DNA of 44,672 nt from an uncultured Bacilli bacterium (lineage in GTDB: Bacteria; Bacillota_I; Bacilli_A; RF39; UBA660), in contig CALVXN010000005.1 in NCBI GenBank assembly GCA_944371315.1, positions 1 through 44,672 on the forward strand, read 5' to 3'. The translations under genes and the position numbers were made by a program. Shown piece after piece: positions 4,423 through 36,288 of this stretch (position 1 is its first letter; each line of letters opens with the position of its first letter). Below the pieces are notes generated by a model. The model searched no databases and was not told the origin of the DNA. It worked only from the letters and a program-made list of their open reading frames with translations.

Positions 4423-6135
4423 TTATTTAAAATGTTTTAACTTTTTCTTTTGCGGCAAAATATAATCATATCTTGTTATACTTATATTAGTGTTAGGTAT
4501 TTTTACTTTTATTTTTTCATTTGTTACTTTTATATTAATTATATCTTTATCATTTTTTATTTCAAATGGTATTTCTTTATCCATAACTTGATATCCTACA
4601 CTGGCTTTTGTTTCTTTTAAAATATATTTACCTAATAATAAATTCTCTATTTCTATTATCCCATCATTGTTTGTTATACCTTTTTCTATTTCTTCTGAGT
4701 TTTCATTCATTAAAATAAATTCTGTTCCTTCAATCGGATTACCTAATCCATCTACTTTTTTTATTATTAATTTTCCTTTTTTATAATAATTTATTATATT
4801 CAAATTTATAGTTTCTATCGCATTTGTTTTATCATTTAATTTTAATTCTATAACATATTCTTCATTATCATTTATAAAATTACCATTATCATTAAATTCT
4901 CTTATTATGTATTTCCCTATCAATAAATCATCAAAAATTATTTTTCCAAAGCTATTTGTATTTTTTATGTCTATTAATTCTTTTTTTTCGTTATATATTC
5001 CAAATTTTATATTTTCTAAAAATTTTCCATCTTCTGATGTTTTTATAATTTCAATTTTTCCTTTTTTGGGCTCATTAAAAAATTCTAGTTTTATTTCATT
5101 TGAGTCTTTAAGTGAAAACAATATACTTTCATTATTTACTTCATAACCATCAATAACCTGTTTATCATTTTCTTTTAATATATAATTTCCAATTGGCAAG
5201 CTCTTTATTTTAATTTCACCATTTTTATCTGTTTTAGCATTCATTATAAAAGTCCCATCTTCTTTATATATATTAAATTCTATTCCTTCTATTTGAAGTG
5301 TTTTATTAGTTTCTTTATCTTTTTTAATTATATTTAAGTTTGTTTCATTAACTTTAAATATTATGTCAAAATCTTCCGGAATAAAACTGCCTGCTGCTAA
5401 AACTTTTTGACTTTCATTATCAAAATATAATATGGGATATTCATTATATAAATTATCTTCTTTACGAAGTGTTATTTTATTTTCGCCAATTATATTTCCA
5501 GTAATTATTAACTTGTTATTTTCTATTTTTACACTTTCATTATTTTCAATAATATAATTATTTAAAACATTATTTGTATCATCAAACTTTTTTGTTTCTC
5601 CATAAGTAAGTTCTATATTTCCTAAATTTGGTTTTTTATTATGATTTTCTACTAGTTTATATATTTCTGCTATTTCATTCGCAAATATATTTTCATTATT
5701 ATTACCATTCAAACCATCAGTAAAATAAAACCGAGCATTTTTATCTATTTCTCGCCATATAAGAACCTGTGTAATATAATACCAATAGTCTTCTTTATGA
5801 TTGTTATATTGATATCCATAGTATGCTATTAGATTTATTTTATTCCATATTTCATTTGAAATGTTTAACTTTTCTAAATAATTATTTTTTACTATTTCAT
5901 ATTTACTATTATTAATTAAACTAATAAATGGCTCTAAACAATATACTGCAACATTATCACTTTTTCTTCTAATAAATATTCCTTGTTTCGTTTTTTCATT
6001 ACCATGTTCATCTATTTTTCTTATATATACATTGCTTATTTTTTCACCTGTATATATTTCTTCTAATGCATTTGCTTTTACATTTAATGAATAAAATGAT
6101 AATAAAGCAAGTAATAGTAAGCTTCTTTTTAACAT
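4423..6135 (-). CDS. Secreted adhesin-like protein: Cys-Gln thioester (TED/TQXA-like) domain plus SpaA/CnaB prealbumin-like repeats
   Basis: Signal peptide ending VKA; VYCLEP and YITQVLIW motifs; three repeats of the K.D/S...G..F...T...G.I....L..G.Y...E pattern; C-terminal IPNT. Confidence 0.8.
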   Translation of the reverse strand: MLKRSLLLLALLSFYSLNVKANALEEIYTGEKISNVYIRKIDEHGNEKTKQGIFIRRKSDNVAVYCLEPFISLINNSKYEIVKNNYLEKLNISNEIWNKINLIAYYGYQYNNHKEDYWYYITQVLIWREIDKNARFYFTDGLNGNNNENIFANEIAEIYKLVENHNKKPNLGNIELTYGETKKFDDTNNVLNNYIIENNESVKIENNKLIITGNIIGENKITLRKEDNLYNEYPILYFDNESQKVLAAGSFIPEDFDIIFKVNETNLNIIKKDKETNKTLQIEGIEFNIYKEDGTFIMNAKTDKNGEIKIKSLPIGNYILKENDKQVIDGYEVNNESILFSLKDSNEIKLEFFNEPKKGKIEIIKTSEDGKFLENIKFGIYNEKKELIDIKNTNSFGKIIFDDLLIGKYIIREFNDNGNFINDNEEYVIELKLNDKTNAIETINLNIINYYKKGKLIIKKVDGLGNPIEGTEFILMNENSEEIEKGITNNDGIIEIENLLLGKYILKETKASVGYQVMDKEIPFEIKNDKDIINIKVTNEKIKVKIPNTNISITRYDYILPQKKKLKHFK

Positions 6136-6258: not shown

Positions 6259-7107
6259 TTACATTTTACTTATTTCTTTTTTACTTAATCCAGTTGCTTT
6301 AATTATAGTATCTATTGGCATTCCTAAATTAAGTAAATTTTTAGCTATATTTCTTTTTTCTATTTTTAGTCCTTTTTTAACACCCTTTTCCATGCCCTCT
6401 TCTAATGCATCTTCTCTAATTGATTTCTTTTCGATCATTTCATCTAATTCTTGATCATAGTAAAACCTAATTGTTTCCCTTTTTATTAAATCATCTCTTA
6501 TTTTTTCTGCTTCCATTAATACTTCATCTCCTTTTATAAATTCATTTATTTCTTTTTTTTCATATCTTGTTATTAATAAATACAATAAATATTTTTCTAA
6601 TTTTTTTATTTTTTTTCCTTCTTTATAATTTTTCTTTTCATATTCTAAATAGATTTCATACACTTTTATTGTTTGGGTATATATATCATTATTTTTATTT
6701 TTTAATACATAACTACTAAATTTTTGAGGCTTATCTAATTTGCTTTTGTATGCATTTATATTAAATAATATTAAATTTTTTTCCTCATCCCAATAAGTTT
6801 TGCTTGCAAATATGGCACATAAATATTTTAATTTATTTTCTTTCATTTTTTTATAATAGTTTCTATTCATTTCAAATACTATTATTATATTATCTATGCT
6901 TATCATACAATCGGTCATTTTCTTTTTTTCTTTATTTGCATTTTCCGTTATTATTTCTGAATCTAATATTTTTAAATTTTCCCTTACATATTCTTTATCT
7001 ATTTTTAATAATTCTGAAACTATACTTATTAAATAGTTAAAACATTCTTTGCTTTTAAAATATATTTTAAATAATGTATCATATGTTAAATCTAAACTTT
7101 CCAACAA
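6259..7107 (-). CDS. Rpn/YhgA-like PD-(D/E)XK nuclease family protein, copy 1 (TTG start)
   Basis: D..FK..F N-terminus, TD...FEMN core, EEG.EKG repeats and IAKNLL..G....I...TGLS C-terminal tail typical of PDDEXK_2/Rpn; SD GGGAGG upstream of TTG. Confidence 0.8.
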   Translation of the reverse strand: MLESLDLTYDTLFKIYFKSKECFNYLISIVSELLKIDKEYVRENLKILDSEIITENANKEKKKMTDCMISIDNIIIVFEMNRNYYKKMKENKLKYLCAIFASKTYWDEEKNLILFNINAYKSKLDKPQKFSSYVLKNKNNDIYTQTIKVYEIYLEYEKKNYKEGKKIKKLEKYLLYLLITRYEKKEINEFIKGDEVLMEAEKIRDDLIKRETIRFYYDQELDEMIEKKSIREDALEEGMEKGVKKGLKIEKRNIAKNLLNLGMPIDTIIKATGLSKKEISKM

Positions 7108-7979
7108 AACCTCCCTTTATTTTTCCTACATTTTACTTATTTCTTTTTTACTTAATCCAGTTGCTTTAATTATAGTATCTATTGGCATTCCTAAATTAAT
7201 TAGATTCTTAGCAATATTCTTTTTCTCTTTTTCCATGCCCTCTTCTAATGCATCTTCCCTAATTGATTTCTTTTCTATCATTTCATCTAATTCTTGATCA
7301 TAGTAAAACCTAATTGTTTCTCTTTTTATTAAATCATCTCTTATTTTTTCTGCTTCCATTAATACTTCATCTCCTTTTATAAATTCATTTATTTCTTTTT
7401 TTTCATATCTTGTTATTAATAAATACAATAAATATTTTTCTAATTTTTTTATTTTTTTTCCTTCTTTATAATTTTTCTTTTCATATTCTAAATAGATTTC
7501 ATACACTTTTATTGTTTGGGTATATATATCATTATTTTTATTTTTTAATACATAACTACTAAATTTTTGAGGCTTATCTAATTTGCTTTTGTATGCATTT
7601 ATATTAAATAATATTAAATTTTTTTCCTCATCCCAATAAGTTTTGCTTGCAAATATGGCACATAAATATTTTAATTTATTTTCTTTCATTTTTTTATAAT
7701 AGTTTCTATTCATTTCAAATACTATTATTATATTATCTATGCTTATCATACAATCGGTCATTTTCTTTTTTTCTTTATTTGCATTTTCCGTTATTATTTC
7801 TGAATCTAATATTTTTAAATTTTCCCTTACATATTCTTTATCTATTTTTAATAATTCTGAAACTATACTTATTAAATAGTTAAAACATTCTTTGCTTTTA
7901 AAATATATTTTAAATAATGTATCATATGTTAAATCTAAACTTTCCAACAAAACCTCCCTTTATTTTCCTACATTTTACT
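6260..7979. repeat. Tandem direct duplication (843-bp offset over most of its length) carrying the two near-identical Rpn genes
   Basis: 6481-7120 is essentially identical to 7324-7963. The differences, including a 24-nt indel, cluster in the 3' part of the genes. Confidence 0.92.
7126..7950 (-). CDS. Rpn/YhgA-like PD-(D/E)XK nuclease family protein, copy 2 (TTG start)
   Basis: Identical to copy 1 up to EEGMEK, then lacks 8 aa; same C-terminus TGLSKKEISKM. Confidence 0.8.
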   Translation of the reverse strand: MLESLDLTYDTLFKIYFKSKECFNYLISIVSELLKIDKEYVRENLKILDSEIITENANKEKKKMTDCMISIDNIIIVFEMNRNYYKKMKENKLKYLCAIFASKTYWDEEKNLILFNINAYKSKLDKPQKFSSYVLKNKNNDIYTQTIKVYEIYLEYEKKNYKEGKKIKKLEKYLLYLLITRYEKKEINEFIKGDEVLMEAEKIRDDLIKRETIRFYYDQELDEMIEKKSIREDALEEGMEKEKKNIAKNLINLGMPIDTIIKATGLSKKEISKM

Positions 7980-8655
7980 AATTTCTTTTTTACTCAATCC
8001 AGTTATAGATGATATTAAATCTATTGATAAACCATGTTCTTTCATACTTTTAGCATTATTTATTTTTTCTTTTTTTAAACCCTTTTCCATTCCAATTTTT
8101 GTTGCATATTCCAATTTCATGTTTTCTTCTAATCTTCTTTCATATTCAGGGTCAAAATCCCATATGAACTCTTCATTTTCTTCTAATCTTTTTCTTTCTT
8201 TTTCTATTTCCATTAATACTTCATTTCCCTTTATTAATTTTTTTATTATTTTTTCACCTTCAATACTTGTTAAATACAAATATAATAAATACTTTTCTAA
8301 TTTACTTATTGTAAATTCATCATACCATTTTTTATATATTTCAACAAGACTTATTTCATATATTTTTATAGCGTCAGTATATAAATTTTCATAGTTTTCT
8401 TGTAATTTATATTCACTTCTATTTTCAATATTTTTAAATCTATTTATGTTTACTAATATTATCTTCTTTGGTTCGTATTTTTCACCCTTTCTAAAACAAT
8501 TATTATATGTTGATGTTACATATCTTAATTTTAATTCTCTATAATTTTCATAATAGCTTCTATTCATTTCAATTATAATTACAAATTCATCTATTAATAT
8601 TATACAATCAGATATTTTTCCTTTTTCTTAGTAAAATCAATATTTTTGTGCACAT
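7968..8655 (-). pseudogene. Diverged third Rpn-family copy, 5'-truncated or frameshifted (intact frame 7968-8567 extends upstream to about 8627)
   Basis: In-frame upstream residues KISDCIILIDEFVIIIEMNR align with KMTDCMISIDNIIIVFEMNR of copies 1 and 2, then a TAA intervenes. The SD GGGAGG + ATG at 8655 is in a different frame. Same C-terminus TGLSKKEISKM. Confidence 0.65.
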
Positions 8656-8718
8656 ATTCCTCCCTTCACTTATATATCTTTCTTATTTATTTTTACTTTC
8701 CTTTTTTAAACAATAAAA

Positions 8719-8739
8719 AAACAACTTTTTTAGTTGTTT
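8719..8739 (-). terminator. Probable terminator after ylbL
   Basis: aaacaact/agttgttt inverted repeat overlapping the stop codon, followed by a T-run on the minus strand. Confidence 0.45.
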
Positions 8740-9734
8740 AAGTATTCTAATGCTTCATCAAAAGTATTTACCCCATGTATATCTATATCTAAATCAAATT
8801 CTTCTTTAACTTTTATCGTTTCTTCATAATTTTCCATTGGACAAATAAATATATCAGCATCATTTTTTACTGCTCCTAGTATTTTATATTTAACTCCATC
8901 TATTGCACCAACTTCACCATTAATTTCAATTGTTCCAGTTCCAACAATAGTTCTTCCTTTTGTAATATCTTCTTTTGTTAATGCATTATAAATTGCTAAA
9001 CTAAGCATTAATCCTCCACTAGAACCTGATTCACTTGCTTTTGTTTTAACATCAATCGAAGGATCAGTTTCATATTCATAAGTAGTTAAAAAAGATATTC
9101 CAACCTTTAATCCATCAGCTGTTTCATATATTTTGGCACTACATTCCTTTTCTTTATTATTTCTTATTACTTTTAATTTTATGGTATCTCCAGCTTCTTT
9201 TTCATTTACAATTTTTTTTACTTCATCTATATTTGTTACTTCAACACCTTCAACACTTATAAGCTCGTCATACATTTTTAAATCAGTTTCTGCATCATCT
9301 GCTATATATATTATATTATTTACTTTTTTAGTTATTTTTAACTCTTTTCCAGCCTTTTCATAAGCAAGTATAGTTGCATTATTAATTGATGATTGCATAT
9401 ATAATTTTTCTAATTCTATTAAATCATCTACTGATTCGTCTTCCCTAGTTATTTCGTCTTTATCTATTAAATCCCAATTAGGTATAATATATGAAAGTAA
9501 AATCATCGGAGCTGTTCCTTTGACAAGGGATACATAACTCATATTAAGTGACCCATCAGATTCATAAGCATCATCGACACTTATTCTTTTTTCTAAATTA
9601 ACTATTCCCCCAGGAGTATATATTACATAAGGAAATTCATAAAAAAACAAAAAAATAATTATACCCCAAATAATTAAAAATTTATAATTTTCAACAATAA
9701 AACTTTTTATACCATCATATAATTTATTAAACAA
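8730..9734 (-). CDS. ylbL: YlbL/SepM-family PDZ + Lon-like (S16) serine protease
   Basis: PYVIYTPGG N-terminus, PDZ region, SGSSGGLM catalytic Ser motif, GTGTI..G.VG.I.GV.YK; divergent from ylbJ, which is near ylbL in Bacillus. Confidence 0.8.
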   Translation of the reverse strand: MFNKLYDGIKSFIVENYKFLIIWGIIIFLFFYEFPYVIYTPGGIVNLEKRISVDDAYESDGSLNMSYVSLVKGTAPMILLSYIIPNWDLIDKDEITREDESVDDLIELEKLYMQSSINNATILAYEKAGKELKITKKVNNIIYIADDAETDLKMYDELISVEGVEVTNIDEVKKIVNEKEAGDTIKLKVIRNNKEKECSAKIYETADGLKVGISFLTTYEYETDPSIDVKTKASESGSSGGLMLSLAIYNALTKEDITKGRTIVGTGTIEINGEVGAIDGVKYKILGAVKNDADIFICPMENYEETIKVKEEFDLDIDIHGVNTFDEALEYLNN

Positions 9735-9775
9735 TTAAATCACCTAATTAATTATAGCAAAAAAAGGATAGTTAT

Positions 9776-10600
9776 ATGAAAAAAAATATTATTTACTTGA
9801 CAATACTTGGACTACTATTTCTTATTTTTAAAAATTATAATATTGTTTTAGAAAGCTCTATTACTGCTGTAAATTTATGGCTATATAAAGTTTTCCCTTT
9901 TCTTTTTATAATGATTATAATAAATGACTTATTAATTAATCTTGATTTTCAATCATTATTTAAAAATACAAGTATTTATATATTTATTATGTCTTTATTA
10001 AGTGGTAGTCCTACTTCTGCAGTTATAATATGTAATTTATATAAAAATAATAAAATAACTAAAAATAATGCTAATGTTACTCTTTTATTTACTTACTTTG
10101 CTAATCCTTTATTTTTATGGACTATCTTAAATTCTATTTTTAATTCTAAAATAATTTCTATTAAACTTATTTTAATTCATTATATATCTAATCTAATTAT
10201 ATATTTTATAGTAAAGAAAAAACTAGATAAATCAATTACTTATAATAATAAGATAAATATTAATATATCTAGTTCCATTAAAAAAGCAATGACTACAACT
10301 ACTATGGTTCTAGGGGCCATTACTTTTTATCTAATTATTAGTAATATATTATCTTTAAATTTATTATTTAAAGGTTTACTTGAAATGACTCAAGGTTTAA
10401 ATGCTTTAATTAATTATAATTCTTATTTTAAAGAGCTTTTAGCAATTCTTTTCATATCCTTTGGGGGTTTATCTATCCATACCCAAGTTAAATGCATTTT
10501 AGATGAAGAAAATATCTCTTATAAATATTTTTTAAAGGGAAGAATTATGCAAACATTAATTGCATTAGGACTTATTATATTAACTAGTGCATGGATCTGA
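9776..10600 (+). CDS. ylbJ: Sporulation integral membrane protein YlbJ-like
   Basis: LW..VFP.LF, SLLSG.PTSA, F.NP.F, GLLEMTQG, FGGLSIH.QV motifs; hydrophobic. Confidence 0.75.
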   Translation: MKKNIIYLTILGLLFLIFKNYNIVLESSITAVNLWLYKVFPFLFIMIIINDLLINLDFQSLFKNTSIYIFIMSLLSGSPTSAVIICNLYKNNKITKNNANVTLLFTYFANPLFLWTILNSIFNSKIISIKLILIHYISNLIIYFIVKKKLDKSITYNNKININISSSIKKAMTTTTMVLGAITFYLIISNILSLNLLFKGLLEMTQGLNALINYNSYFKELLAILFISFGGLSIHTQVKCILDEENISYKYFLKGRIMQTLIALGLIILTSAWI

Positions 10601-11173
10601 TGGTGAAGAACATGTTGCTCCAAGACAATTTATATTTGTGGTTACTAAATCATCAAGTTTCCCAATATAATTTATTATGATATCATCAAGAGTATTATTA
10701 TTACATAATTTATTCTTTTCATTAGTTGTATGTATTTCTATATCTATTGATAAACTATAATAATTTTTTCCAGAAGCATTATTGTCCTTCATATAATATA
10801 CATTTGCTTTTTTTGTGTATATTGTTCCACCTTCAATATTCCATGCTCTACTTTCACCATCACTATCAGTATATTTTATCTTTTTTTCTTCTGCTTCTAT
10901 TTTAGAACTAGTTCTATCAGTAAATTCAATATTAATAACTAGTTTAGTTTCATTACTTCCAGAATCATTTATACTAGCTATATTTTTATTATTTAAGTCA
11001 TTTCCTATCATTCTAAGTATTTCTGCTCTATTTATTTGATTATCCTTAGCATATGTATTATTTGCCTCAGCATCATTTAAATCTATTAATAACTTTATCA
11101 TAAATAATAACACAACAGAAATTAATGCAATACTTATTATTAATTCAGCAAGGGTAGTTCCTTTTTTATTCAT
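10580..11173 (-). CDS. Type IV pilin/pseudopilin-like protein
   Basis: Class III signal MNKKG|TTLAELIISIALISVVLLFM with Glu at +5; several C-terminal Cys. Confidence 0.8.
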   Translation of the reverse strand: MNKKGTTLAELIISIALISVVLLFMIKLLIDLNDAEANNTYAKDNQINRAEILRMIGNDLNNKNIASINDSGSNETKLVINIEFTDRTSSKIEAEEKKIKYTDSDGESRAWNIEGGTIYTKKANVYYMKDNNASGKNYYSLSIDIEIHTTNEKNKLCNNNTLDDIIINYIGKLDDLVTTNINCLGATCSSPSDPCTS

Positions 11174-11175
11174 GA

Positions 11176-12072
11176 CTAACCTCCGATTATATATGGATCC
11201 ATTTCTGATCCACTACCACTAATATATCTATTACTATTACTTAATACTACAACTGGTCTAACACTATATGTATTAGTTATTTCACCAGATGCAACATTCC
11301 CACTAGTATCTATATAAAAGAAATTTTTTATATTATTAAAGTCTCTTACCATTGTCCACATATTAGGTACATTTTTAAGCCAGTTATTTGCAGTATTATA
11401 TTCATTTACTTTTTTAACCCAATCACCTGGTGCTGCAGCATAAGCATAATCACTTATATATAAAAGACCAACTTTACTATATACTGCTCCATATGCATTA
11501 CTATTTTCACCTAGCTCTAAGCTATATACCCCATTAGCAGTTAAATCTAATTTTATATCTTCATCACTTGGCACATACCAATAATTATTATCTATTGCAT
11601 CTTCAACATCTACCAATGTATTTAAATATTCATCAGTTAAATAATCAGTATATAAATTACTTGTTACATAATCATTTTTATTATTATCAGTATATGTTCT
11701 AGTTGTAATAGCTTCATTTCTAATTATTTTTACTTTCCCATTAATTACACCAATTATTCGCCATAACTCATTATTGAATTTTACATAATTACTTGGATTA
11801 GATCCACTATATCTATAATTATTATCATTTGCTCCATTTGTTAAATCAGCATCATGATAATAAAGTCCATTTTCTCCGTCAGTAGTATATACTTCATTTA
11901 TTATATAACTAGCAAAACTACTAATAGCAATTTCATCTTTTATTTTTTCTTTTATTCCATTTAATAGTGTTCTATTACTTACTAAATTATTTACTATAAA
12001 TAAAAGCATTAATAAAAATACTAAAAAAAATGAATAAACTGTTGTTGTTGAAATAAAACCTTTTTTATTCAT
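11176..12072 (-). CDS. Minor-pilin-like protein (no Glu+5) fused to a DUF6273/CLec-like domain
   Basis: MNKKG|FISTTTVYSFFLVFLLMLL N-terminus; YRYSG.NP.NYV, WRIIG, VGL.Y.SDY.YA, NNWL, WTM, YSVRPV, GSG...DPY motifs shared with 12926-14536. Confidence 0.7.
   Translation of the reverse strand: MNKKGFISTTTVYSFFLVFLLMLLFIVNNLVSNRTLLNGIKEKIKDEIAISSFASYIINEVYTTDGENGLYYHDADLTNGANDNNYRYSGSNPSNYVKFNNELWRIIGVINGKVKIIRNEAITTRTYTDNNKNDYVTSNLYTDYLTDEYLNTLVDVEDAIDNNYWYVPSDEDIKLDLTANGVYSLELGENSNAYGAVYSKVGLLYISDYAYAAAPGDWVKKVNEYNTANNWLKNVPNMWTMVRDFNNIKNFFYIDTSGNVASGEITNTYSVRPVVVLSNSNRYISGSGSEMDPYIIGG
11851..11917. repeat. Homologous block shared with 13811-13877
   Basis: 58/67 nt identical; encodes FASYIINEVYT(T/A)DGENGLYYHD (21/22 aa identical). 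Confidence 0.85.
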
Positions 12073-12080
12073 AGCTTCAC

Positions 12081-12665
12081 CTACAAACCTAATGATACAA
12101 AATAATTACGACAATTTGTATCAACTCTTGGAGTGCATTTAGTAATTTTACCATCACTATCTACTTTTTCACTATATTCAACTACTAAATAATAATCATG
12201 TTTTGTATCATTTATTGATTTAATATAATTTGTTAAGTTATATGCATTATCTGTTGCATTAAAATAACATTTACCTGATGTTTCACTTCCATCACATTCA
12301 TCTATATAATTTCTTTTAACTAAAAACATTTGATTAACCTTAAAATTATTTAATATATTTTCTAACGTATTATTCATATTTTCCGCTAATTGTGCTTCAT
12401 TAAAAAAGTTATCAAATGCATTTCCTATTGACGTTACATATGATTTTTTAAATGCTTCACTTTTAACATATTCAATATTAGCGTTTTCTTCTAAAAATCT
12501 TTTTATATAATTAGTTTTATAGATATATGCTACATCATCATAATACACTCTTGTTTCTTCTTTATCAATTATATTATTGTAAGAATTATATAAATATAAT
12601 AAAGAAGTCGACAAAACAAGAACTGTAACAATAGTTTCAATAAATACAAAACCTTTATTTTTCAT
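12081..12665 (-). CDS. Type IV pilin/pseudopilin-like protein
   Basis: Class III signal MKNKG|FVFIETIVTVLVLSTSLLYL with Glu at +5; two Cys pairs. Confidence 0.78.
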   Translation of the reverse strand: MKNKGFVFIETIVTVLVLSTSLLYLYNSYNNIIDKEETRVYYDDVAYIYKTNYIKRFLEENANIEYVKSEAFKKSYVTSIGNAFDNFFNEAQLAENMNNTLENILNNFKVNQMFLVKRNYIDECDGSETSGKCYFNATDNAYNLTNYIKSINDTKHDYYLVVEYSEKVDSDGKITKCTPRVDTNCRNYFVSLGL

Positions 12666-12883
12666 TATATCCCTACTTTAATAATTATTTTATTTTTTTC
12701 TACTAATATATTATATTAACTATATTATCAATAGAATATGTTGGAGTATTGAAAGTTTAAATTTAGCAACAAGTCCTTTAACACTAATTAATTTTAAGAA
12801 CATTTAATACTGTTCTTTGCTTTTAAAGCCATACCAACGATAAAATTAAATGCTTATTTATTATTTTTTGTTGATAAGTCCGA

Positions 12884-12910
12884 CCACGTCGGTTTGAGAT
12901 GCCGACGTGG
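12884..12910. promoter_or_regulatory. GC-rich hairpin/cruciform 15 nt downstream of the putative DGR target gene
   Basis: Perfect 9-bp stem ccacgtcgg/ccgacgtgg with a 9-nt loop; no U-tract follows it on the coding (minus) strand. Confidence 0.7.
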
Positions 12911-12925
12911 CCTTTTTTAGGTTTC

Positions 12926-14536
12926 TCACACCGCAATTCTAAATGGCGAATCCTTTGTCCCATTTCCACTGGCATACGGGATATTAGACTTCAGATAAAA
13001 GACAGGCCTAACAGAATAGCCATTATACGCGTAGCTAGTGTAGAGATTGCCGTTATAATTAAAGTTAAACACATCGCTGGAGGCGGACGAATTCGGGGTC
13101 ATTGTCCATTCATATAATCCCATATATAGCCAATTATTTTCCTTTATTGTTAATGAACTATATGAATTTAAATTTGTTTTCCATGCATCAGAATAAGCTG
13201 CATATCCATAATCACTTACATACATTAATCCTATTTTTGTAGAATTACCATTTGCATTTTCTGGTCCATATGTTGTTGGATTACTTCCATATCCTGAATT
13301 ATTTCTCTCACCCGTATAAAAACTTTTTGCTGTATTACTAGAAGATGTCATCCCCCCCAAATGCCATGTTGAATCCTCTATCATATCACTCCATGAATTT
13401 CCTAAATAAGATATATAATTTGTATTTAAATTTATTTTATTTAATTCACTTGTTGTCCAATTATTTGATCCATATGAACTTACACTTTTATCATAATTCC
13501 ATCTATATGCCACAATCGTGCTTGTATCCATACTTCCTTTATAATTTGAAGTTGAAGATGTATAATTTCCTTTATAATCTCTTCCATTAATTCCAAGCAT
13601 TGCGCTTGTTGTATAATCTGCTTTTATTAATTTAACATTATATTCTCCATCATTATCTTCATCAAAGACACCAATTATACGATACAAATATTCATCTGGG
13701 CAAGTATCAGCATCACTTCCAAAACACACATAATTATTTGGATTAGCCCCACTATATCGATACGAATTATCACCAGCTTCTTGATCTGCATTTGTGTAGT
13801 CACCTACTCCATCATGATAATATAATCCATTTTCTCCATCAGCAGTATAAACCTCATTAATAATATAACTTGCAAAAGTTTTATATTCATCTTTCTTTAA
13901 TAATATAGATGCATTTAAACTTTTTCCACCATTTTCATGTTGGTTTGTTTCTAAATTTATAAATGTTACTTTAAATGTCCAATTTTGAATAGTTGGATTA
14001 GTGCTACTACTAGATGATATTTCATAAAGCGATGCAACATTATATAAATCATCAGCTGTTGTAATATCAAAGCCAGTAACTGTTGAACCATCAGCATTAG
14101 TTGCTGTAACATAATTAAGGCCACTTAAACTAGTAATTTCTTCTCCTAAAGGATTAGTAATAGTTAATACTATTTCTGGTGTTTTTTCTGGAGTAGTATA
14201 AACATAATTATTAGAATTTATTCGAAAATAAACATAATAATTATATGTTGCAGTCTTATTGGTTGAATTAGCAACTAAACTAGCAGTCCCTGTTGCTTGA
14301 TCTGATAAACCACTTCCACCTTCAGTAACATTAAATTGTGTTGGATTTAAATCAATTTCTTTATCTACACTAAATTTTAAATTATCTGTTGTATCTGCAC
14401 CTATATTTACATTACCTGTTGCTCCCCCAGATATTTGAGCAATTACATAAGCAAAAGATACACCAATAAATAAAATTAAAAGTAAAGATAAAAGTAATAT
14501 TTTTTTGTTTTTTAAATATGTTTTTACCTTGTTCAT
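12926..14536 (-). CDS. Secreted/surface protein with SipW-type signal peptide and C-terminal DUF6273/CLec-like domain; candidate DGR target
   Basis: Hydrophobic N-terminus ending GVSFAY; C-terminus WTMTP...NGN......NGYSVRPVFYL...G.GT...PF. Confidence 0.75.
   Translation of the reverse strand: MNKVKTYLKNKKILLLSLLLILFIGVSFAYVIAQISGGATGNVNIGADTTDNLKFSVDKEIDLNPTQFNVTEGGSGLSDQATGTASLVANSTNKTATYNYYVYFRINSNNYVYTTPEKTPEIVLTITNPLGEEITSLSGLNYVTATNADGSTVTGFDITTADDLYNVASLYEISSSSSTNPTIQNWTFKVTFINLETNQHENGGKSLNASILLKKDEYKTFASYIINEVYTADGENGLYYHDGVGDYTNADQEAGDNSYRYSGANPNNYVCFGSDADTCPDEYLYRIIGVFDEDNDGEYNVKLIKADYTTSAMLGINGRDYKGNYTSSTSNYKGSMDTSTIVAYRWNYDKSVSSYGSNNWTTSELNKINLNTNYISYLGNSWSDMIEDSTWHLGGMTSSSNTAKSFYTGERNNSGYGSNPTTYGPENANGNSTKIGLMYVSDYGYAAYSDAWKTNLNSYSSLTIKENNWLYMGLYEWTMTPNSSASSDVFNFNYNGNLYTSYAYNGYSVRPVFYLKSNIPYASGNGTKDSPFRIAV
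12968..13102 (-). other. Putative DGR variable region (VR)
   Basis: 45 consecutive codons (ATG 13102 to AGT 12968) with no A at position 3; about 46% GC over 12881-13100 versus about 26% in the next 100 nt of the same gene; many codons derivable from AAY. Confidence 0.75.
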
Positions 14537-16392: not shown

Positions 16393-16421
16393 TATAATAT
16401 AATGCATTCGTGGGGGTTGTC

Positions 16422-17192
16422 ATGAAAGAGATTAAAAAAAGTGAACTTTTAAGTTATCCTGAATTTAGTGAATCTATTTATTGGAGTCAAAAAAATACTT
16501 TATATAAAATATGTAAATTATTACCAGTTGAACATGAACGAATAGAATTTCTAAAATTTATTTATAAATTAGATATTCCAGGTTTAATTAAGCCATTAGA
16601 TTTATTAAGTAATGAAAAAATATATGGTTATGAAATGCCTTATGTTGATGGGACTACCGTAGATAAAGTCTTAGTTGCCTCAACTACCGATATTAACGTA
16701 ATACAGATAATTAAAGAAATGTTTAATATCTTGGGTAAAATACATGAACATTTCATTTATGGTGATATTAGATGTTCCAATATTATGATTTCTAATAATT
16801 TACCATTGTTTATTGATTAGGATTCTGGAAAACCTTTAAATTCCAATTATTGGGTTGTTTCATATTATAATTTATTCATTAAAAGGCAATATGGAGCTAA
16901 TAAGCTTGAAGATATCGCTAAATTATATATTTGTGCATTATCATTACTCTATCAAATTGATATAGAACTATTTGTTATGCGTTATGGTCCATATGCTTTA
17001 AGAGATTTCTTAACTGATGCTAATGTTAATAGCGAAATTGTTAATGCATTAAATATTTTGATTAGGGTTTATGAAGAAGAAAAAGATTCAACAAATTATG
17101 ATTTTATTGAAATGTTTTCAATTATTAATTTACCTTCTAGTAAAGAAAAAGAATTAATTAGAGCCAGATTAAATCCTTTTATTAGAAAATAA
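16422..17192 (+). pseudogene. Minimal protein-kinase-like gene, copy 1, with an in-frame TAG at 16818-16820
   Basis: ORFs 16410-16820 and 16977-17192 are in the same frame. FID*DSG aligns with FIDWDFG/FIDWDLG of the paralogues; catalytic loop HFIYGDIRCSN. Confidence 0.8.
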
Positions 17193-17209
17193 CTATTTAG
17201 GAGAATGAA

Positions 17210-17980
17210 ATGAAAGAAATTGATAGAAGAATTATTGAAACATTTCCAAAGTTTTCAAAAGATATTTATTGGAGCATGGATAGAACTTTATATAAAATAT
17301 GTAAATTTGATTTATCTACATTAAATAGAATTAATTTTTTAAAATATGTTTATGGATTAGATAATGTTCCTGGTTTAAATTTACCATTAAGTTTATTATA
17401 TGATGATGAAATTTACGGCTATGAAATGGCTTATATAAATGGTTCATGTAACATTGATGAGTATATATCGGTATCAAATAAAGATAAAGATGTAAGAAAG
17501 ATTATATCAAGTATATTTGAAGCATTAAAAGAAATTCATAAATATTTTATATTTATAGATGTTCGCAATTCAAATATTTTAGTTAAAGATAATAGTGCTA
17601 TATTTATTGACTGGGATTTTGGAATTATTAAAGGGACAGAAGATTATGCAAGATCTTATTATCGGGTATTAACAAGAAAATATATAGGAACTGTTTTAGA
17701 AGATTTAGTAAAAGCTTTTATTAGTGCTTTATCCCTACTATATCATTGTGATATTGAATTTTTTATGACAACTCATAATTTATTTGATTTACAAAGTTTA
17801 TTAGAAAGTATAAATGCCGATAAAGAAATTATTCATTGTGTAAAATTATTTACTGGATTGTATGTTTATGATGAAAGAGTTAAAGATTTTGACTTTACAA
17901 ATATGTTTTTAAATGTTAATTTACCAACTAAAAAAGAAAAAGAATTAATTAGAGAAAGGATTCGTCATATTAGAAAATAA
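17210..17980 (+). CDS. Minimal protein-kinase-like protein, copy 2
   Basis: LYKI (beta3 Lys), YGYEM hinge, IH....DVRNSN catalytic loop, IDWDFG metal-binding motif. Confidence 0.75.
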   Translation: MKEIDRRIIETFPKFSKDIYWSMDRTLYKICKFDLSTLNRINFLKYVYGLDNVPGLNLPLSLLYDDEIYGYEMAYINGSCNIDEYISVSNKDKDVRKIISSIFEALKEIHKYFIFIDVRNSNILVKDNSAIFIDWDFGIIKGTEDYARSYYRVLTRKYIGTVLEDLVKAFISALSLLYHCDIEFFMTTHNLFDLQSLLESINADKEIIHCVKLFTGLYVYDERVKDFDFTNMFLNVNLPTKKEKELIRERIRHIRK

Positions 17981-17996
17981 CGAATTGAGGTGTTTT

Positions 17997-18770
17997 ATGA
18001 TAGAAATAGATAGAGAAATTATAAAAACTTATCCTAAGTTTTCTTTAGGAATATATAAAGGTGAAAATAATGATTTATATAAAATATGTCCTTCATTTCC
18101 TGATAAAGAGCAAAGAATAAATTTTTTAAAATTTATGAATAGTTTTAAATCTTTTCCAGGAGTTTTATTACCAACAGATTTATTATGTGATAGAGAAATT
18201 TACGGATATAAGATGCCTTTTATAAGCGATGCCCAAGATATATCTTTATTAGTATCTCGTGATGAACAAGATAAAGATGTTAGAAAAATAATCTTAGATA
18301 TATTTGCAATTTTAAAAGAAATACATAAATATTTTATTTTTAATGATATTCGCACTTCTAACATTTTAATTAAAGATGATAGTGCTATTTTTATTGACTG
18401 GGATTTAGGAATAATTAAAAATTCTACTGATAAAGCATGCTGTTATTATTATACTTATAATATATCGTATATAGGAACCATTTTTGAAGATATTGTTAAA
18501 GCTTTTATTAGTGCTTTATCATTATTTTATCATTATGATTTAGAAATTTTTATGAAAAAACATAGCATTTTTGATTTAAGAGAATTATTACTTAATGCAA
18601 AAGCCGATAGAGAAATAATACATACAATAGACATTATAATTGATATATATTTTAAAAAAAGAAAAATGGAAGAACTAGATGTTGTAGGTTTATTTGAAAC
18701 AATTGATTTACCTAGTAAAAGAGAAAAAAATAGAGTTAGAAAAAGAATAAAATCTCAAGTTAATAAGTAA
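17997..18770 (+). CDS. Minimal protein-kinase-like protein, copy 3
   Basis: Paralogue of copy 2 (DIRTSN, IDWDLG, VKAFISALSL); SD GAGGTG before ATG 17997. Confidence 0.75.
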   Translation: MIEIDREIIKTYPKFSLGIYKGENNDLYKICPSFPDKEQRINFLKFMNSFKSFPGVLLPTDLLCDREIYGYKMPFISDAQDISLLVSRDEQDKDVRKIILDIFAILKEIHKYFIFNDIRTSNILIKDDSAIFIDWDLGIIKNSTDKACCYYYTYNISYIGTIFEDIVKAFISALSLFYHYDLEIFMKKHSIFDLRELLLNAKADREIIHTIDIIIDIYFKKRKMEELDVVGLFETIDLPSKREKNRVRKRIKSQVNK

Positions 18771-18782
18771 CATTGAGATTTT

Positions 18783-19799
18783 TTATTTTATAAACATTGC
18801 ATCACCAAAAGAGAAAAAACGATAATTATTTTTTATAGCAAACTTATATGCATTTAATATATATTCTTTACTTGATAATGCTGAAACTAACATTAATAAA
18901 GTGCTTTTAGGTAAGTGAAAATTAGTAATTAGTCCATCAATTGCCTTAAACTTATATCCTGGATAAATAAAAATATCAGTCCATCCACTACATGCTTCAA
19001 ATTTGTCATATTTACTTCTAACAGTTTCTAAAACTCTTGTTGAAGTTGTTCCAACTGCATAAATTTTACCTTTACATTCATTTAAAGTTTTGGCAGTTTC
19101 TTCATTTATTATGTAGTATTCGCTATGCATTTTATGTTTTGTAATATCAGTTTCTTCAACTGGTCTAAATGTTCCAAGACCTACATGTAAAGTTACATAA
19201 CATATAGTTATTCCCTTTTCTTTAATTTGATTTAGTAGTTCTTTAGTAAAATGTAGCCCTGCTGTTGGTGCTGCAGCAGAACCAATATTTTTAGCATAAA
19301 CTGTTTGATACCTTGACTCGTCTTCCAATTTTTCATGTATATATGGAGGAAGTGGCATTGTTCCTAACTTATCTAATATTTCCATTAGAATACCTTCATA
19401 TATTAATTCCACTTCAACTATTCCTTCATCCATTTTTTTTATGACTTTTGCTTTTAGTAAACCATTTCCAAAAGTTATAATTGTTCCCTCGCGTAATCTT
19501 TTTTGAGGCCTTGATAAACACTCCCAATTATTATTTTCAATATTTTTCAATAGTAATAATTCTATTACTGCTTTTGTGTCTTCTTTTTCCCCAATTAATC
19601 TTGCTGGAATAACTTTTGTATCATTTAATACTAAAATATCATCTGGAGTAATGTAATCTATTACATTTTTAAATATATCTTCTTTTAGTTCTCCATTATT
19701 TTTATCCATGATTAATAATTTTGAATCGCTTCTATTTTTAAGAGGAGTTTGAGCAATTAATTCTTGTGGTAAATCATAGTTGTATTCTTCAATATTCAT
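18783..19799 (-). CDS. queA: S-adenosylmethionine:tRNA ribosyltransferase-isomerase
   Basis: [53 protein letters not shown]. Confidence 0.97.
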
Positions 19800-20473
19800 T
19801 TTATTAATTCCTCAAACTTTCTTTCTAATTCATCATTAATATCATCAATTGTTCTAATAACATCATCTTTAACACAATCTATTTTTATATACCCATATCT
19901 TTCAGTTAATTCTAAATATGCATCCTCTGCTCTTTTTAAATGGTCTTTATTTGATTCATGTTGATCAGCAGACTCACTTCTACTCTTTTTAAGTATTGCA
20001 GCATATTCATATGGCATATATAAAAATATTACAGCATCTGGTCTAGGTAATTCCATTATACCAAATTCAAGTTCATCTAATTTTTCATACATTTTTACTC
20101 TTTCTTCTTTAGTATTTAGTTTTCCTCCTTGATGAGCCATATTTGATTCAACATATCTATCAAGTAAAACTATATCACCATTATTTAAATGATTTTCTAT
20201 TTCTTTGATATTATAACGACGATCTGCTGCATAATAAGCTGATGCTACTAATGCATCAACATTTGCTGCTCCCTCAGGAAACCAACCATCACATATTTGT
20301 TTTTTACCCAAATATGGTCCTCCAACAATTTTACCCGTTGGGCAATCATAATTTGGAAAACTAAAATTATATATTTTTACATTCTTTTTTGCAAATTTTT
20401 CAACTAACTTCTTTACTTGTGTTTCTTTTCCTGAACAATCTGTTCCTTCAATTACTATTAACTTACCTCTCAT
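19796..20473 (-). CDS. tmk: Thymidylate kinase family protein
   Basis: [13 protein letters not shown]-loop, [12 protein letters not shown]. Confidence 0.85.
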
Positions 20474-20488
20474 ATTACTAACACTCCC

Positions 20489-21697
20489 TTATATTTTATT
20501 TTTTAAATTAATACCATCTTTAAAATTACATTTACTATAACATACAAAATCTTTAAATGTGCATCTTGCTCCTTTTAAATAATTTTTTATATCTTCTTTT
20601 AATGGATTATTACTTTTTTCTAGAGTCTCACTATATTTATGCAATGTATTTTTTGTTTGATTCATTATTTCAAGCTGAGCACAACTGCATAATCGTTCTT
20701 TACATTTTAATATGAAGTTTTCATATGTTCCACGTTCAAAAATTGTTATCAACCTACCACATGGATAAACATCTTTTACGCTTTTTATATCTTCTAACCA
20801 TTCATTTTTTAATGCATCATCATCAAGCAATATTGGTGGTATAAAATATTTATCATCATCATTAATTTCAATTTTATAGTCTATTGTTCTATGCCTTTGA
20901 GCTTGAGCAAGCATTGCAAATGATCCTTCATAAACTGTTGCATAAACATCACCAAAATACTCTTCTTTTTCTTTTAAGTTTGAACCAAACAAAGAAATAC
21001 TTCTATTTTTTTCATTTTTTAATAAACCTTCATCTAATATATTTAACTTTTCTAATTCATCAATAAATTCTTGCATATATTTAGATAATTTATGAGAAAA
21101 GTCATCATTACTCGCTTGCTTTTTTATATATTTTTTAAACCAAGATACTATATAATTAATTTGTCTTAATGATGTAGTATAAATCATTGTTGTTGGCATA
21201 AAAACTGTAATTAGATATCTGGCATTTTCTTGAGCCAATTTAGTAATTTTGCTATCACTAAATGTATCTTTATATATTTCCTTTATTTTTCTTTCAAATA
21301 TTTTTAACCATTTTTCATAAAGTTCTATTTCTCTTTTAGAAATTATACTGTCTTTACCAGCTTCTATTTTTGTATATCTAGCTGATTTTTCACTAGTAGT
21401 ATATTCTTTTTCATTATTTAATATCATAGCTAATATTTTAGGTATATTAGTTATATTTAAACTCATGTAAATGTGATCATATACACTATGATGCCCATTA
21501 TCTTTCGTTAGAACTATTCTTCTTTTAGTCTTTTCTTCACTTTCTTCTTTTAATTTATTAAAACCCTCTAAATCATAACAAACTCCTGCAAATTTACCAC
21601 TAAGCATTAAACACTCATCTAAATCTAATTTACCATCTAATGTATCAAAATAAGACTTTGCAATATCAATTTTTATCATTTTTATTCCCTTAATCAT
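20489..21697 (-). CDS. thyX: Tandem-domain flavin-dependent thymidylate synthase (ThyX/Thy1-like)
   Basis: GH.SV..H, EKSARY, QENARY in the N-half; Q.QRHR and RLC..AQ.EI in the C-half; flanked by glyA, folD and tmk. Confidence 0.7.
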
Positions 21698-25477: not shown

Positions 25478-26779
25478 GTGATACAAATGTTTAGAGATTT
25501 TGACTACGAAAATAAACCTGTTGTAGACATAGTAAACGAAATGATTATCGATGCTATTAATAAAAAAGCATCCGATATTCATTTTGACCCTACTGAAGAT
25601 TCCCTAAATGTCCGCATTAGAATTGATGGGGAACTTTTAGAATATGCTAAAGTTCCTAATTTCGTCAAAAAAAATCTCTTAACTAGAATAAAAATCATAT
25701 CTGGAATGAATATTACTGAAACAAGATTACCTCAAGATGGTGCCATAAAAAACTTAACTGATAAATTAGATTTAGATTTACGTGTATCTAGTTTACCTAT
25801 TGTTGATGGAGAAAAAATAGTTATACGTATTTTAAACTATTCTATGAGCACAGCAGGATTAGAAAATCTTGGATTATCAGATAAAAATTTAGAAAAGATT
25901 AATAAATTAATAAAAGTTCCAAATGGAATTATACTTGTAGCTGGTGCTACTGGTAGTGGTAAATCAACTACTGTTTATGCTATGTTACAAGTATTAAATA
26001 CTGTTTCAAGGAATATTATTACTGTTGAAGATCCAGTTGAAATGAAAATTGCTGGCATTAATCAAGTTCAAGTTATGAGTGATATCGGTCTTACTTTTGG
26101 CAATACTTTAAGAAGTATTCTTAGACAAGACCCAGATATAATAATGATCGGAGAAATTCGTGATGATGAAACTGCTCGTATTGCAGTTAGAGCATCTATT
26201 ACTGGACACCTTGTTTTATCTACAATACACACTAATAATTCATTAAACACTATTGAAAGATTACTAGATATGGAAGTAGAAAGATATTTATTAGGTAGTG
26301 CTTTGTCTGGTATAATATCTCAAAGATTAGTTAAAAGATTATGTCCTAAATGTAGAACAAGCCGTCCTACTACTCAATTTGAAAAGGTTCTATTTGAAAA
26401 AGTTTTAAATCAAAAAGTAGATCAAGTTTATGCTCCTCATGGATGTAGTGAATGTATAAATGGATATACCGGTCGAATTGCATTACATGAAATACTAATA
26501 ATGAATCAAGAAATACGCGATGCTATTACAAACAATATTCGTAAAAATGAATTAAGACATCTTGTTTATGATCGTAGTGATGTTACGAGTTTACTTAAAG
26601 ATGGTCTTGAAAAAGTTGTTGCAGGTCTTACTAGTATTGAAGAGATATTAAGAGTTATCGATGTTGATGAAGATATCGGGGAAGATGAAGAAGATATTAA
26701 AGCAGCATTCATGGGAAAACCACAAGAAGTTAACGAAACTATGGATATTGTATCTAATGATGAAATTGAAACATTATAA
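25478..26779 (+). CDS. GspE/PulE/PilB-family pilus assembly ATPase
   Basis: ASDIH, RLPQDG, GATGSGKST, TVEDPVE, LRQDPD, GEIRD, TGHLV.ST.H, CPKC...CSEC zinc motif. Confidence 0.93.
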   Translation: MIQMFRDFDYENKPVVDIVNEMIIDAINKKASDIHFDPTEDSLNVRIRIDGELLEYAKVPNFVKKNLLTRIKIISGMNITETRLPQDGAIKNLTDKLDLDLRVSSLPIVDGEKIVIRILNYSMSTAGLENLGLSDKNLEKINKLIKVPNGIILVAGATGSGKSTTVYAMLQVLNTVSRNIITVEDPVEMKIAGINQVQVMSDIGLTFGNTLRSILRQDPDIIMIGEIRDDETARIAVRASITGHLVLSTIHTNNSLNTIERLLDMEVERYLLGSALSGIISQRLVKRLCPKCRTSRPTTQFEKVLFEKVLNQKVDQVYAPHGCSECINGYTGRIALHEILIMNQEIRDAITNNIRKNELRHLVYDRSDVTSLLKDGLEKVVAGLTSIEEILRVIDVDEDIGEDEEDIKAAFMGKPQEVNETMDIVSNDEIETL

Positions 26780-35772: not shown

Positions 35773-36288
35773 TTAATTTAAAATTGTTCCTTCAACTACT
35801 AATTGATAACCCTCTATTATTTGATCACACGTAGTTAAGTATATTTTATTTTCTTCATTTGTAATTTCTATATCTCCACTTTTTTTAACTCTATTTATTT
35901 TTGCAACTTTGTATTTATTTGTTGTATTTTTAATTTTCAAATATATTATATCATTTTCTTTAAGTTTATCTAAGTCATTAAAGTAAGCTATTTTTCCAAT
36001 TCCAGAATGAGCTGCAAATAAGTAACTATTTTTTACTGGTATTTTTATTAATTCTATATTTTTAGAAACATCATTTAAAGGATTATCATAATCATAAAAT
36101 CCTAAATTTATATTAATACTAGGAATAATCAAATAACCATAATATTCTTCTTTTTGATAAGTATTATAATTATTTAATAGTTTTGTTTCTATTTTTTTAA
36201 AATTTATATTTTTACTATTAATTAACACAATGATTATTGCTAATACTATTAAAATTATAAAAATTTTTTTCTTCATAATATAATTCAC
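35773..36288 (-). CDS. Sortase
   Basis: N-terminal TM, L.IP.I, AAHSG, F..L..L, YLTTC catalytic motif. Confidence 0.85.
   Translation of the reverse strand: MNYIMKKKIFIILIVLAIIIVLINSKNINFKKIETKLLNNYNTYQKEEYYGYLIIPSININLGFYDYDNPLNDVSKNIELIKIPVKNSYLFAAHSGIGKIAYFNDLDKLKENDIIYLKIKNTTNKYKVAKINRVKKSGDIEITNEENKIYLTTCDQIIEGYQLVVEGTILN

Follow-up and report, generated by a model that had tools for sequence, protein, structure and literature searches.

The window analysed here, a 44,672-nucleotide contig (C5) of an uncultured Bacilli bacterium, carries on its minus strand a row of four co-oriented genes that we read as two separate units standing side by side. One is a gene for a 536-aa protein whose variable region (VR) a diversity-generating retroelement (DGR) rewrites in trans, and the other is a conserved operon of three predicted minor type IV pilins, the middle one bearing a fixed module of the same DUF6273/C-type-lectin-like family; the adjacency of the two would be specific to this lineage. 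We put the probability of this reading at about 0.7. The contig is one of 58 in a metagenome bin of 1,085,115 bases that is 93.5% complete, and the sequencing runs containing the genome are labelled chicken gut. A preliminary description, made from the window alone, had placed the VR gene directly upstream of three tightly packed genes, and this stands, with intergenic gaps of 260, 8 and 2 nt. The features on which the argument turns are the following.

12926-14536, minus strand: DGR variable-protein gene, 536 aa, with a signal/anchor helix, a beta-sandwich N-terminal domain (N-domain) and a C-terminal DUF6273/C-type-lectin-like domain
13004-13096, minus strand: VR of 93 nt, which aligns gap-free with the template repeat (TR) on another contig of the same genome, G000:C29:9478-9570(-)
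12882-12912, minus strand: hairpin with an 11-bp stem and a 9-nt loop, which begins 13 nt past the stop codon of the 536-aa gene
13883-14401, minus strand: N-domain, aa 46-218, a beta-sandwich in the AlphaFold2 (AF2) model
12081-12665, minus strand: predicted minor pilin, 194 aa, N-terminus MKNKGF/VFIE, with Gly-1 and Glu+5
11176-12072, minus strand: predicted modular minor pilin, 298 aa, N-terminus MNKKGF/ISTTT, with no Glu5 and with a DUF6273 lectin-like module
10580-11173, minus strand: predicted minor pilin, 197 aa, N-terminus MNKKG/TTLAE, with Gly-1 and Glu+5

Composition sets the 3' end of the 536-aa gene apart from the rest of the contig, since the G+C content (GC), about 0.24 over the contig, rises to 0.445 at 12900-13099. 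The segment 13001-13099, which encodes TPNSSASSDVFNFNYNGNLYTSYAYNGYSVRPV, has a GC of 0.45 and not a single A in third codon position (0/33), against a frequency of 0.40 elsewhere in the gene. The contrast that had been drawn with the middle pilin gene holds, as the counterpart segment there (11251-11352) is AT-rich, with a GC of 0.26 and 11 of 34 third positions occupied by A. A repeat search returned no TR within the window and the TR was found on contig C29 instead; a search of the genome with the GC-rich tail recovered related tails on 7 other contigs together with an A-rich copy on C29. The TR (C29:9478-9570) is 93 nt long and rich in AAC/AAT codons, and it sits in a cassette that reads, in order, target (451 aa), 173-aa gene, bAvd-like gene, reverse transcriptase (RT), TR, 95-aa gene and target (378 aa). 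The RT is encoded by an open reading frame (ORF) at 9588-10646, 18 nt from the TR, its 352 residues matching RVT_1 with 69.3 bits; inspection by eye found the motifs IGNMTSQ, which we take to be the DGR-RT motif, and YMDD. The bAvd-like gene codes for 119 aa and is matched with an E of 1.3e-6 and 29.2 bits, below the cut-off of 40.

Comparison of the VR copies with the TR revealed the following mismatches.

C56: at adenines 11/34, at other bases 3/58
C35: at adenines 17/34, at other bases 3/59
C2: at adenines 20/34, at other bases 2/59
Window (C5): at adenines 12/34, at other bases 12/59; taken alone this copy shows no adenine bias

A non-adenine T>G change near the 3' end is common to the VRs of the window, C56, C35, C2 and C29, while C19 has A at that position, and this shared change is probably a marker of the template-target boundary. 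The relation between TR, VR and RT is observed directly, and the evidence supports the 536-aa gene as a genuine DGR target whose retroelement lies on another contig, because the TR, the RT and the Avd-like gene are present on C29, the hairpin past the stop codon is conserved, and orthologues vary at the Asn codons of the TR. In the mechanism that we propose, the gene would give a surface or secreted protein whose DUF6273 domain ends in the VR, the TR transcript from C29 would be reverse-transcribed with errors at adenines, and the resulting cDNA would replace the VR in trans, the post-stop hairpin marking the target.

The two targets on C29 itself (7940-9076 and 11577-12932) have identical VRs, and their C-terminal 85 residues are also identical, which reflects a collapse of the assembly or else a recent event of duplication or homing. 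A second RT, on C44 (2612-4471, 619 aa, YVDD), was considered as a further DGR and rejected, as its neighbours look metabolic and no VR-like match is present on that contig; it may be a defence-type RT.

The preliminary description had a single copy of the domain under retro-diversification, which is true within the window and does not extend to the genome, where we count 11 paralogues, 9 of them aligning to the TR over the full 93 nt. The targets are scattered over at least 7 contigs of the 1.09-Mb genome. Seven copies of the C5 type are 67-85% identical in the domain and form one clade with a support of 99 in a quick tree, which looks like a recent expansion; the family of such targets numbers about nine. 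The tree is suggestive only, its domain boundaries having been cut roughly by motif; in it, 14 of 17 pilin-borne copies group at a support of 92, the copy of the window pilin is left unplaced, and the copy from locus L042 groups with the VR-type genes (support 96).

The hairpin recurs 12-14 nt past the stop codon of the paralogues with the consensus GGCCACGTCGG-CATCTYAAA-CCGACGTGGTC. It is intact in 7 of the 11 paralogues, among them C5, C2, C35, C26 and both C29 copies, the C29 pair carrying a compensatory T>G / A>C exchange, has one stem mismatch in C56 and is degenerate in C19. Of the paralogues examined, C28, C1 and the 298-aa pilin gene have no such hairpin. Folded as DNA, the window hairpin has an energy of -12.4 kcal/mol (z -3.5). 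It is terminator-like on the plus strand only; on the coding strand no T-run trails it, and it is therefore not an ordinary terminator of the 536-aa gene. Hairpins play a role in DGR homing and, by analogy, this one is probably a candidate target-recognition element, its conservation among the paralogues being observed.

We also investigated whether the VR of the window has been rewritten in nature. Other samples hold eight orthologues with 84-91% overall identity; these are near-invariant over the N-terminal 300 aa, but hypervariable where the TR has AAY (Asn), with the interspersed Ser, Val-Phe, Gly, Leu and Ala residues largely fixed. The orthologue in L018, a locus of a sister genome, differs from the window at 21 of 93 VR bases, 15 of these at TR adenines, against about 7% gene-wide. 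In addition, a contig from run X1 has 12967-13066 replaced by a diverged stretch of equal length, and assemblies break around the VR. Strain variability is accordingly a direct observation, and because of the orthologue pattern, the L018 differences and the X1 replacement we conclude that the window VR has been diversified. That the copy is still being rewritten at present is what we infer; it is unproven because of the 12 non-adenine differences from the TR of its own genome.

These differences have a bearing on whether the window VR is instead a frozen or decaying former target, formerly rewritten and no longer diversified in this strain, a possibility that we regard as unlikely. The non-adenine mismatches to the sole TR of the genome (12/59) equal the adenine ones in number, and decay is graded in other paralogues, C19, C28 and C26 having 12, 24 and 15 non-adenine mismatches (44 aligned in C26); the hairpin is missing from C28 and degenerate in C19 but has stayed intact in C26. 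The window copy, on the other hand, has kept both its hairpin and a GC-rich tail with third-position A at 0/33, and the differences between orthologues of other samples fall mostly at TR adenines. The non-adenine differences from the TR are largely common to the window and L018 (about eight, counted by eye). Moreover, the sister genome G040, which has the VR seen in L018, possesses two DGR cassettes with different templates, L098 (G040:C6) and L099 (G040:C33), and the TR on G040 C6 fits the window VR better than its own, with 11/33 adenine and 7/60 non-adenine mismatches compared to 12/59 non-adenine ones. The likeliest reading of the non-adenine differences is consequently drift of the template or a second TR missing from the assembly, whereas mixing of strains in the bin, or an end to the rewriting of this copy, is possible. 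One of the G040 templates also has a 15-nt internal duplication relative to the TR of the window genome.

The domain that ends in the VR is shared with the middle pilin, as had been claimed before, and the 536-aa and 298-aa proteins are 33% identical over ~316 columns (BLASTP E ~3e-30). AF2 gave models for both, with a predicted local distance difference test (pLDDT) of 89.5 for the 298-aa protein, which is composed of an alpha1 helix (aa 3-49) and the module (aa 52-298), and of 88.4 for the 536-aa protein, composed of a helix (2-35), the beta-sandwich (52-214) and a globular domain (219-536). The closest structural match is the N-terminal domain (residues 32-304) of entry 9qa6, which the 298-aa module matches with Z 17.7 and a root-mean-square deviation (rmsd) of 2.7 Å over 194 aligned residues (21% identity), and residues 219-536 of the 536-aa protein with Z 16.5 and an rmsd of 2.9 Å over 204. 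Much lower matches of the 298-aa module were the C-terminal domain of Legionella Lcl (Z 7.0) and the Bacteroides fimbrial protein 4eps (Z 6.5). The 9qa6 domain belongs to the IgA protease of Thomasclavelia ramosa and has a double-size C-type-lectin-like core with a structural zinc site; it is not needed for catalysis and its function is given as unknown (PMC12237041). It is annotated as DUF6273 (PMC12402451), the family described as the C-lectin-like target domain of phage DGRs, or 'tentaclins' (PMC10743442).

The models show this fold for both domains. The Pfam DUF6273 hidden Markov model (HMM; PF19789) gives the 536-aa protein 13.1 bits, below the gathering cut-off of 23.5, and leaves the 298-aa protein unmatched, whereas 22 of 42 members of the 298-aa family are matched at E <= 0.01, the best at 4.3e-9. 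We regard the two domains, on the strength of their models, as probable divergent DUF6273 relatives that lie below HMM confirmation; the VR gene and the middle pilin share an old domain family. The 536-aa protein has more than 7900 homologues, and the Glu5-less pilin-DUF6273 family 642 near-length homologues at E <= 0.001.

No retroelement marks were found on the 298-aa pilin gene, its tail having a GC of 0.29 vs 0.24, and none of 40 pilin orthologues has a GC-rich tail, the largest excess being +0.09 vs +0.12 to +0.15 in the hairpin-bearing paralogues. These data support the conclusion that the pilin-borne copy of the domain is fixed and not diversified. The two genes have one stretch, covering roughly the first 50 codons of the domain, in which they are much closer than elsewhere: the pilin gene at 11785-11940 (minus strand; aa 45-96) and the VR gene at 13730-13894 are 78-83% identical in nucleotides (repeat family D18), beyond which the sliding identity drops to 35-65%. 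The stretch differs in the pilin orthologues of other species, and the sequence comparison suggests a gene-conversion tract between neighbours.

The three genes downstream read, by sequence, as a minor type IV pilin operon. They had all been described as having class III (prepilin) N-termini, which is correct for the 194-aa and 197-aa proteins, in which Gly-1 and Glu+5 are invariant, and correct in part for the 298-aa protein, which lacks Glu5 while retaining the leader, Gly-Phe and the helix. In the 194-aa family G5, F6 and E10 are invariant in 20/20 orthologues, in the 197-aa family G5 and E10 in 21/21, and both families conserve a short basic leader, a hydrophobic stretch and paired C-terminal cysteines. 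G5 and F6 are invariant in 18/18 members of the 298-aa family, which keeps M-x-K-K-G-F-I-S and a conserved hydrophobic helix and never has Glu5. Prepilin HMMs, failure of which had been named beforehand as a reason to doubt the pilin assignment, do fail on the proteins of the window, N_methyl and TIGR02532 being silent for the 194-aa and 298-aa proteins, but at the level of families N_methyl matches 20/21 orthologues of the 197-aa and 8/20 of the 194-aa protein at E <= 0.01, and 0/42 of the 298-aa family. A class III signal without Glu5 is known to be missed by prediction tools in GspK-type subunits and in Streptococcus sanguinis PilA (PMC9934059).

The machinery that such an operon calls for is encoded in the genome, and a SipW-type peptidase, a prepilin peptidase and PilC, which the preliminary description had proposed to look for, are all present. 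The prepilin peptidase PilD (Peptidase_A24, 52.8 bits) and the platform protein PilC (T2SSF, 98.3 and 82.5 bits) are on C24, and an assembly ATPase is found in the window, 13 kb from the trio.

25478-26779, plus strand: PilB/GspE/ComGA-type assembly ATPase, T2SSE 410.6 bits

Seven further prepilin-type genes are present in the genome, two of them coding for 878 and 885 aa; these two giant modular pilins are adjacent (G000:C12:14708-17344 and 18006-20663) and have prepilin N-termini of the KGFTLVE type. Contigs of RNA run X18 give pieces over parts of all four genes of the row, with 12720-12770 left unbridged and DNA carry-over possible, and a promoter scan of the window gave 33 sites vs 38.2 expected.

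From the operon structure and the presence of a Glu5-less member we derive a putative tip complex, and the 298-aa pilin is, together with its two neighbours, most likely an adhesin displayed at the tip of the pilus; both the tip location and the adhesin function are inferred from this arrangement. In the related genomes of uncultured gut Bacilli examined, the trio, placed between ysxE and ylbJ, would display the fixed DUF6273 module in this way. We also weighed whether the trio belongs to a competence (Com-type) DNA-uptake pseudopilus in which the DUF6273 module serves another purpose, and consider this improbable. The 194-aa protein has a weak ComGE likeness (16.1 bits, cut-off 49), the genome encodes ComEC (149.5 bits), and the window ATPase reaches 269 bits on ComGA (cut-off 300). 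The same ATPase, however, scores higher on GspE and PilB (476 and 456 bits; all three values are below the equivalog cut-offs), and a second T2SSE ATPase on C1 (96.8 bits) suggests a pilus that retracts. The lectin-like fold of the module, as used for ligand binding in DGR targets and in pilus tip adhesins, and the several further prepilin genes, including those of 878 and 885 aa, also speak for an adhesive minor-pilin operon rather than a competence device, although competence and adhesion roles of the trio are mutually compatible.

In order to establish whether the VR gene and the trio belong together, we compared 41 related loci (L018-L058) of 80 retrieved, from uncultured gut Bacilli/'Tenericutes' bins, CAG:609, CAG:460 and Candidatus Onthocola. 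All three pilin genes are present in order in 34 of the 41, typically flanked by spoVID-ysxE and by ylbJ / lon-PDZ, and in the remaining 7 the locus is cut by a contig end or the middle gene has its best score against the VR protein. Both ysxE and the first pilin gene are visible in 29 of the loci: nothing but a gap of 161-302 nt separates them in 25, a VR-family gene intervenes in 3, and in 1 a pilin is enlarged by a DUF6273 module. The intervening VR-family genes of L024 and L030 have GC-rich tails, while that of L048 consists of the N-domain only; L018, from the sister genome, has the same arrangement as the window. Since 25 of the 29 loci that are informative lack any gene between ysxE and the trio, the adjacency of VR gene and trio is a lineage-specific exception and not a conserved system. 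The suggestion that the adhesin and the pilin cluster are coupled is hence not supported, the lack of conservation in relatives that had been named beforehand as counter-evidence being largely what is seen, and a functional link between the two is possible, at low odds.

The synteny set also showed that one domain is mounted on different carriers, as the preliminary description had it, and on more of them than the pilin and the VR protein of the window, because the first pilin of the trio (the 194-aa protein here) bears a DUF6273 module as well in L032:5600-6982 and L042:5510-6988, with lengths of 460 and 492 aa. In L039:7833-9890 and L043:1604-3634 it is the third pilin that is larger, at 685 or 676 aa, and the module content of the trio differs between species.

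Several observations weigh against the reading of two separate units, with a DGR target on one side and a minor-pilin operon on the other. A VR-family gene lies upstream of the trio also in three divergent relatives (L024, L030 and L048), and 3 of 9 VR-family loci (C5, C56 and C26) are within 2 kb of a prepilin gene, compared to a random mean of 0.44 (P 0.008), in a proximity test made post hoc, in which the locus that raised the question is itself counted. The window trio is below the curated prepilin cut-offs, with 17.8 against 21.2 bits for N_methyl and 13.5 against 16.3 for TIGR02532. The window VR is an unclean product of the TR of its own genome (12/34 adenine and 12/59 non-adenine mismatches). 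Finally, a bin of 58 contigs may lack a second TR or combine contigs of different strains, and the identical VRs of both C29 targets are a possible assembly collapse.

The first two of these points would be explained if the adjacency were meaningful. The VR proteins, some nine of them diversified, would be heads on a TasA/BsaA-like, SipW-processed fibre of donor-strand subunits, with stand-alone N-domain proteins as its shaft and with passage through the wall dependent on the type IV pilus (T4P) machinery or minor pilins, so that one lectin-like head would have two parallel displays, fixed on the T4P tip and diversified on the fibre. If true, this would explain why family genes recur upstream of the trio and near other pilin genes, and the 156-nt near-identical tract would mean that heads are still exchanged between the two carriers. 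We find the proposal highly doubtful as it stands.

The preliminary description had contrasted a prepilin-type export signal of the pilins with a SipW/TasA-type signal of the VR protein. The distinct N-terminus of the 536-aa protein is real, a basic leader, a hydrophobic helix and SFAY succeeding one another (…FIGVSFAYV…), and 7/7 aligned N-domains have the motif [ST][FYW]A[YF][FV] after their hydrophobic stretch; the name SipW/TasA is an interpretation on which the HMMs are silent. Two stand-alone proteins are made up of the signal and the N-domain only (C23:133-822, 229 aa, and C19:6423-7067, 214 aa; BLASTP E 1e-27 to 1e-35). The C23 protein comes close to the TIGR04088 cut-off of 19, with 17.2 bits in the genome scan and 13.6 in hmmscan, a SipW-type peptidase is encoded in the genome (90.3 bits, cut-off 51.85), Foldseek pairs the N-domain with TasA 8aur at a probability of 0.90 (E 1.7e-3), and in language-model neighbour clusters 59% of members have Peptidase_M73, with a score of 0.94 and 202 shared features. 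The fibre proposal draws as well on the VR-family genes upstream of the trio in L024, L030 and L048, on the 3/9 loci near prepilin genes, and on a preprint on Clostridium perfringens in which secretion of oligomers of the TasA-like BsaA is lower in some T4P mutants, an effect termed 'not definitive' (PMC11580942).

These leads are offset by others. Neither TIGR04088 nor Peptidase_M73 matched the 536-aa protein in HMM scans of protein and genome, the scan of the genome reaching only other ORFs, with 17.2 and 13.5 bits for TIGR04088 (cut-off 19) and 15.5 bits for PF12389 (cut-off 22.5). The superposition on TasA 8aur, with Z 5.5 and an rmsd of 4.6 over 127 aligned residues, lies among those on unrelated beta-sandwiches (Z 5-6.7), and a profile search of PDB sequences with the N-domain did not return TasA, giving two insignificant rows with E 0.15 and 1.3. 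Among 12 related loci, L121 alone has a SipW-like gene close to an N-domain gene, an ORF that has no Pfam match, and 25/29 loci have the trio without such a neighbour, the proximity test being post hoc. To assign the 536-aa protein to the SipW/TasA type is a sensible lead that falls short of a result, and we retain the reading of two separate units. In L116, L117 and L122, stand-alone N-domain genes occur in tandem arrays of 2 or 3 copies that adjoin a conserved gene of ~381 aa with a CarboxypepD_reg domain.

Both units belong to known classes, the VR gene to the cellular multi-target DGR variable proteins with a DUF6273/C-type-lectin head and the trio to the modular minor-pilin operons. Treponema denticola TvpA and Legionella LdtA are reportedly cellular DGR variable proteins with a C-type-lectin fold. 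The system described here resembles multi-target DGRs in its RT, Avd-like gene and A-rich TR, in a VR at the C-terminal end of a C-type-lectin domain, in mismatches of sister copies that are adenine-specific, in a hairpin downstream of the VR and in several trans targets. It differs from them in that the targets are spread over at least 7 contigs in a genome of very small size (1.09 Mb), the hairpin is found ~90 nt beyond the TR/VR homology, just past the stop codon, the carrier is an N-terminal beta-sandwich with a TasA-like signal motif, and many differences from the TR are at bases other than adenine. A GspG-type pilin domain is among the rare VR-bearing domains in one survey (PMC11661182).

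The nearest counterpart of the trio is the PilA-PilB-PilC tip complex of S. sanguinis, likewise a 3-gene minor-pilin operon in a monoderm, with one Glu5-less member that has a degenerate class III signal and with a bulky adhesive (lectin) module on a pilin (PMC9934059). Unlike in that complex, as far as the available account goes, the Glu5-less pilin is here itself modular, its module is DUF6273/C-type-lectin-like and not ConA-like or vWA, and the trio is apart from the assembly genes, between sporulation genes, its own tip complex being putative. The domain of the T. ramosa IgA protease (9qa6) has the same enlarged C-type-lectin-like/DUF6273 fold and comes from a gut member of the same phylum, but it is an accessory part of a sortase-anchored protease and, in the portions of the reports available, is neither diversified nor borne by a pilin (PMC12237041, PMC12415215, PMC12402451). 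The type V pili of Bacteroides, also of gut bacteria, combine a tip adhesin, a C-type-lectin fold and a DGR (bioRxiv 10.1101/2024.11.15.621889); in the available part of that preprint it is the pilus subunit that is diversified, whereas here the pilin copy is fixed, the diversified copies are on another carrier and the pilus is of type IV. TasA/BsaA fibres are alike in a SipW-cognate-like signal motif, the beta-sandwich, stand-alone paralogues as a possible shaft and a SipW homologue (PMC11580942, from the portion available), and differ in that the family HMMs are silent or below cut-off here, the fold match is unspecific and an operon of sipW with a subunit gene was not seen.

The claim that the arrangement had not been characterised can be kept in part only. 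DUF6273 targets of DGRs (PMC10743442) and lectin-bearing modular minor pilins (PMC9934059) are in print; by contrast, the literature searched did not describe a pilin-DUF6273 family in gut Bacilli, nor DGR heads on a TasA-like carrier, supplements lying outside its scope. The find leaves the understanding of DGRs and of type IV pili unchanged. It does present a host-associated genome of 1.09 Mb that devotes about ten genes to one lectin-like head, most of them hypervariable and one fixed on a conserved pilus component, it offers a natural comparison of constant and moving ligands on the same fold, and it makes adhesion a concrete candidate function for DUF6273.

Other parts of the window contain further repeated or surface-related genes. 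At 6259-8567 there are three tandem paralogous genes (282, 274 and 199 aa), the first two of which share an 843-nt tandem duplication at 99-100% identity; a family scan of one copy (7126-7950) gave no informative match. A second set of three tandem paralogues, at 16410-18770 and flanked by spoVID and queA, consists of small kinase-like genes, the first apparently split (136 + 71 aa) and the others coding for 256 and 261 aa, with a weak Pkinase match of 25.9 bits that is below the cut-off. A surface adhesin of 570 aa with a thioester domain and a SpaA fold is encoded at 4423-6135 and a sortase gene is found 30 kb from it, at 35773-36288, which adds a third, sortase-type display route within the window.

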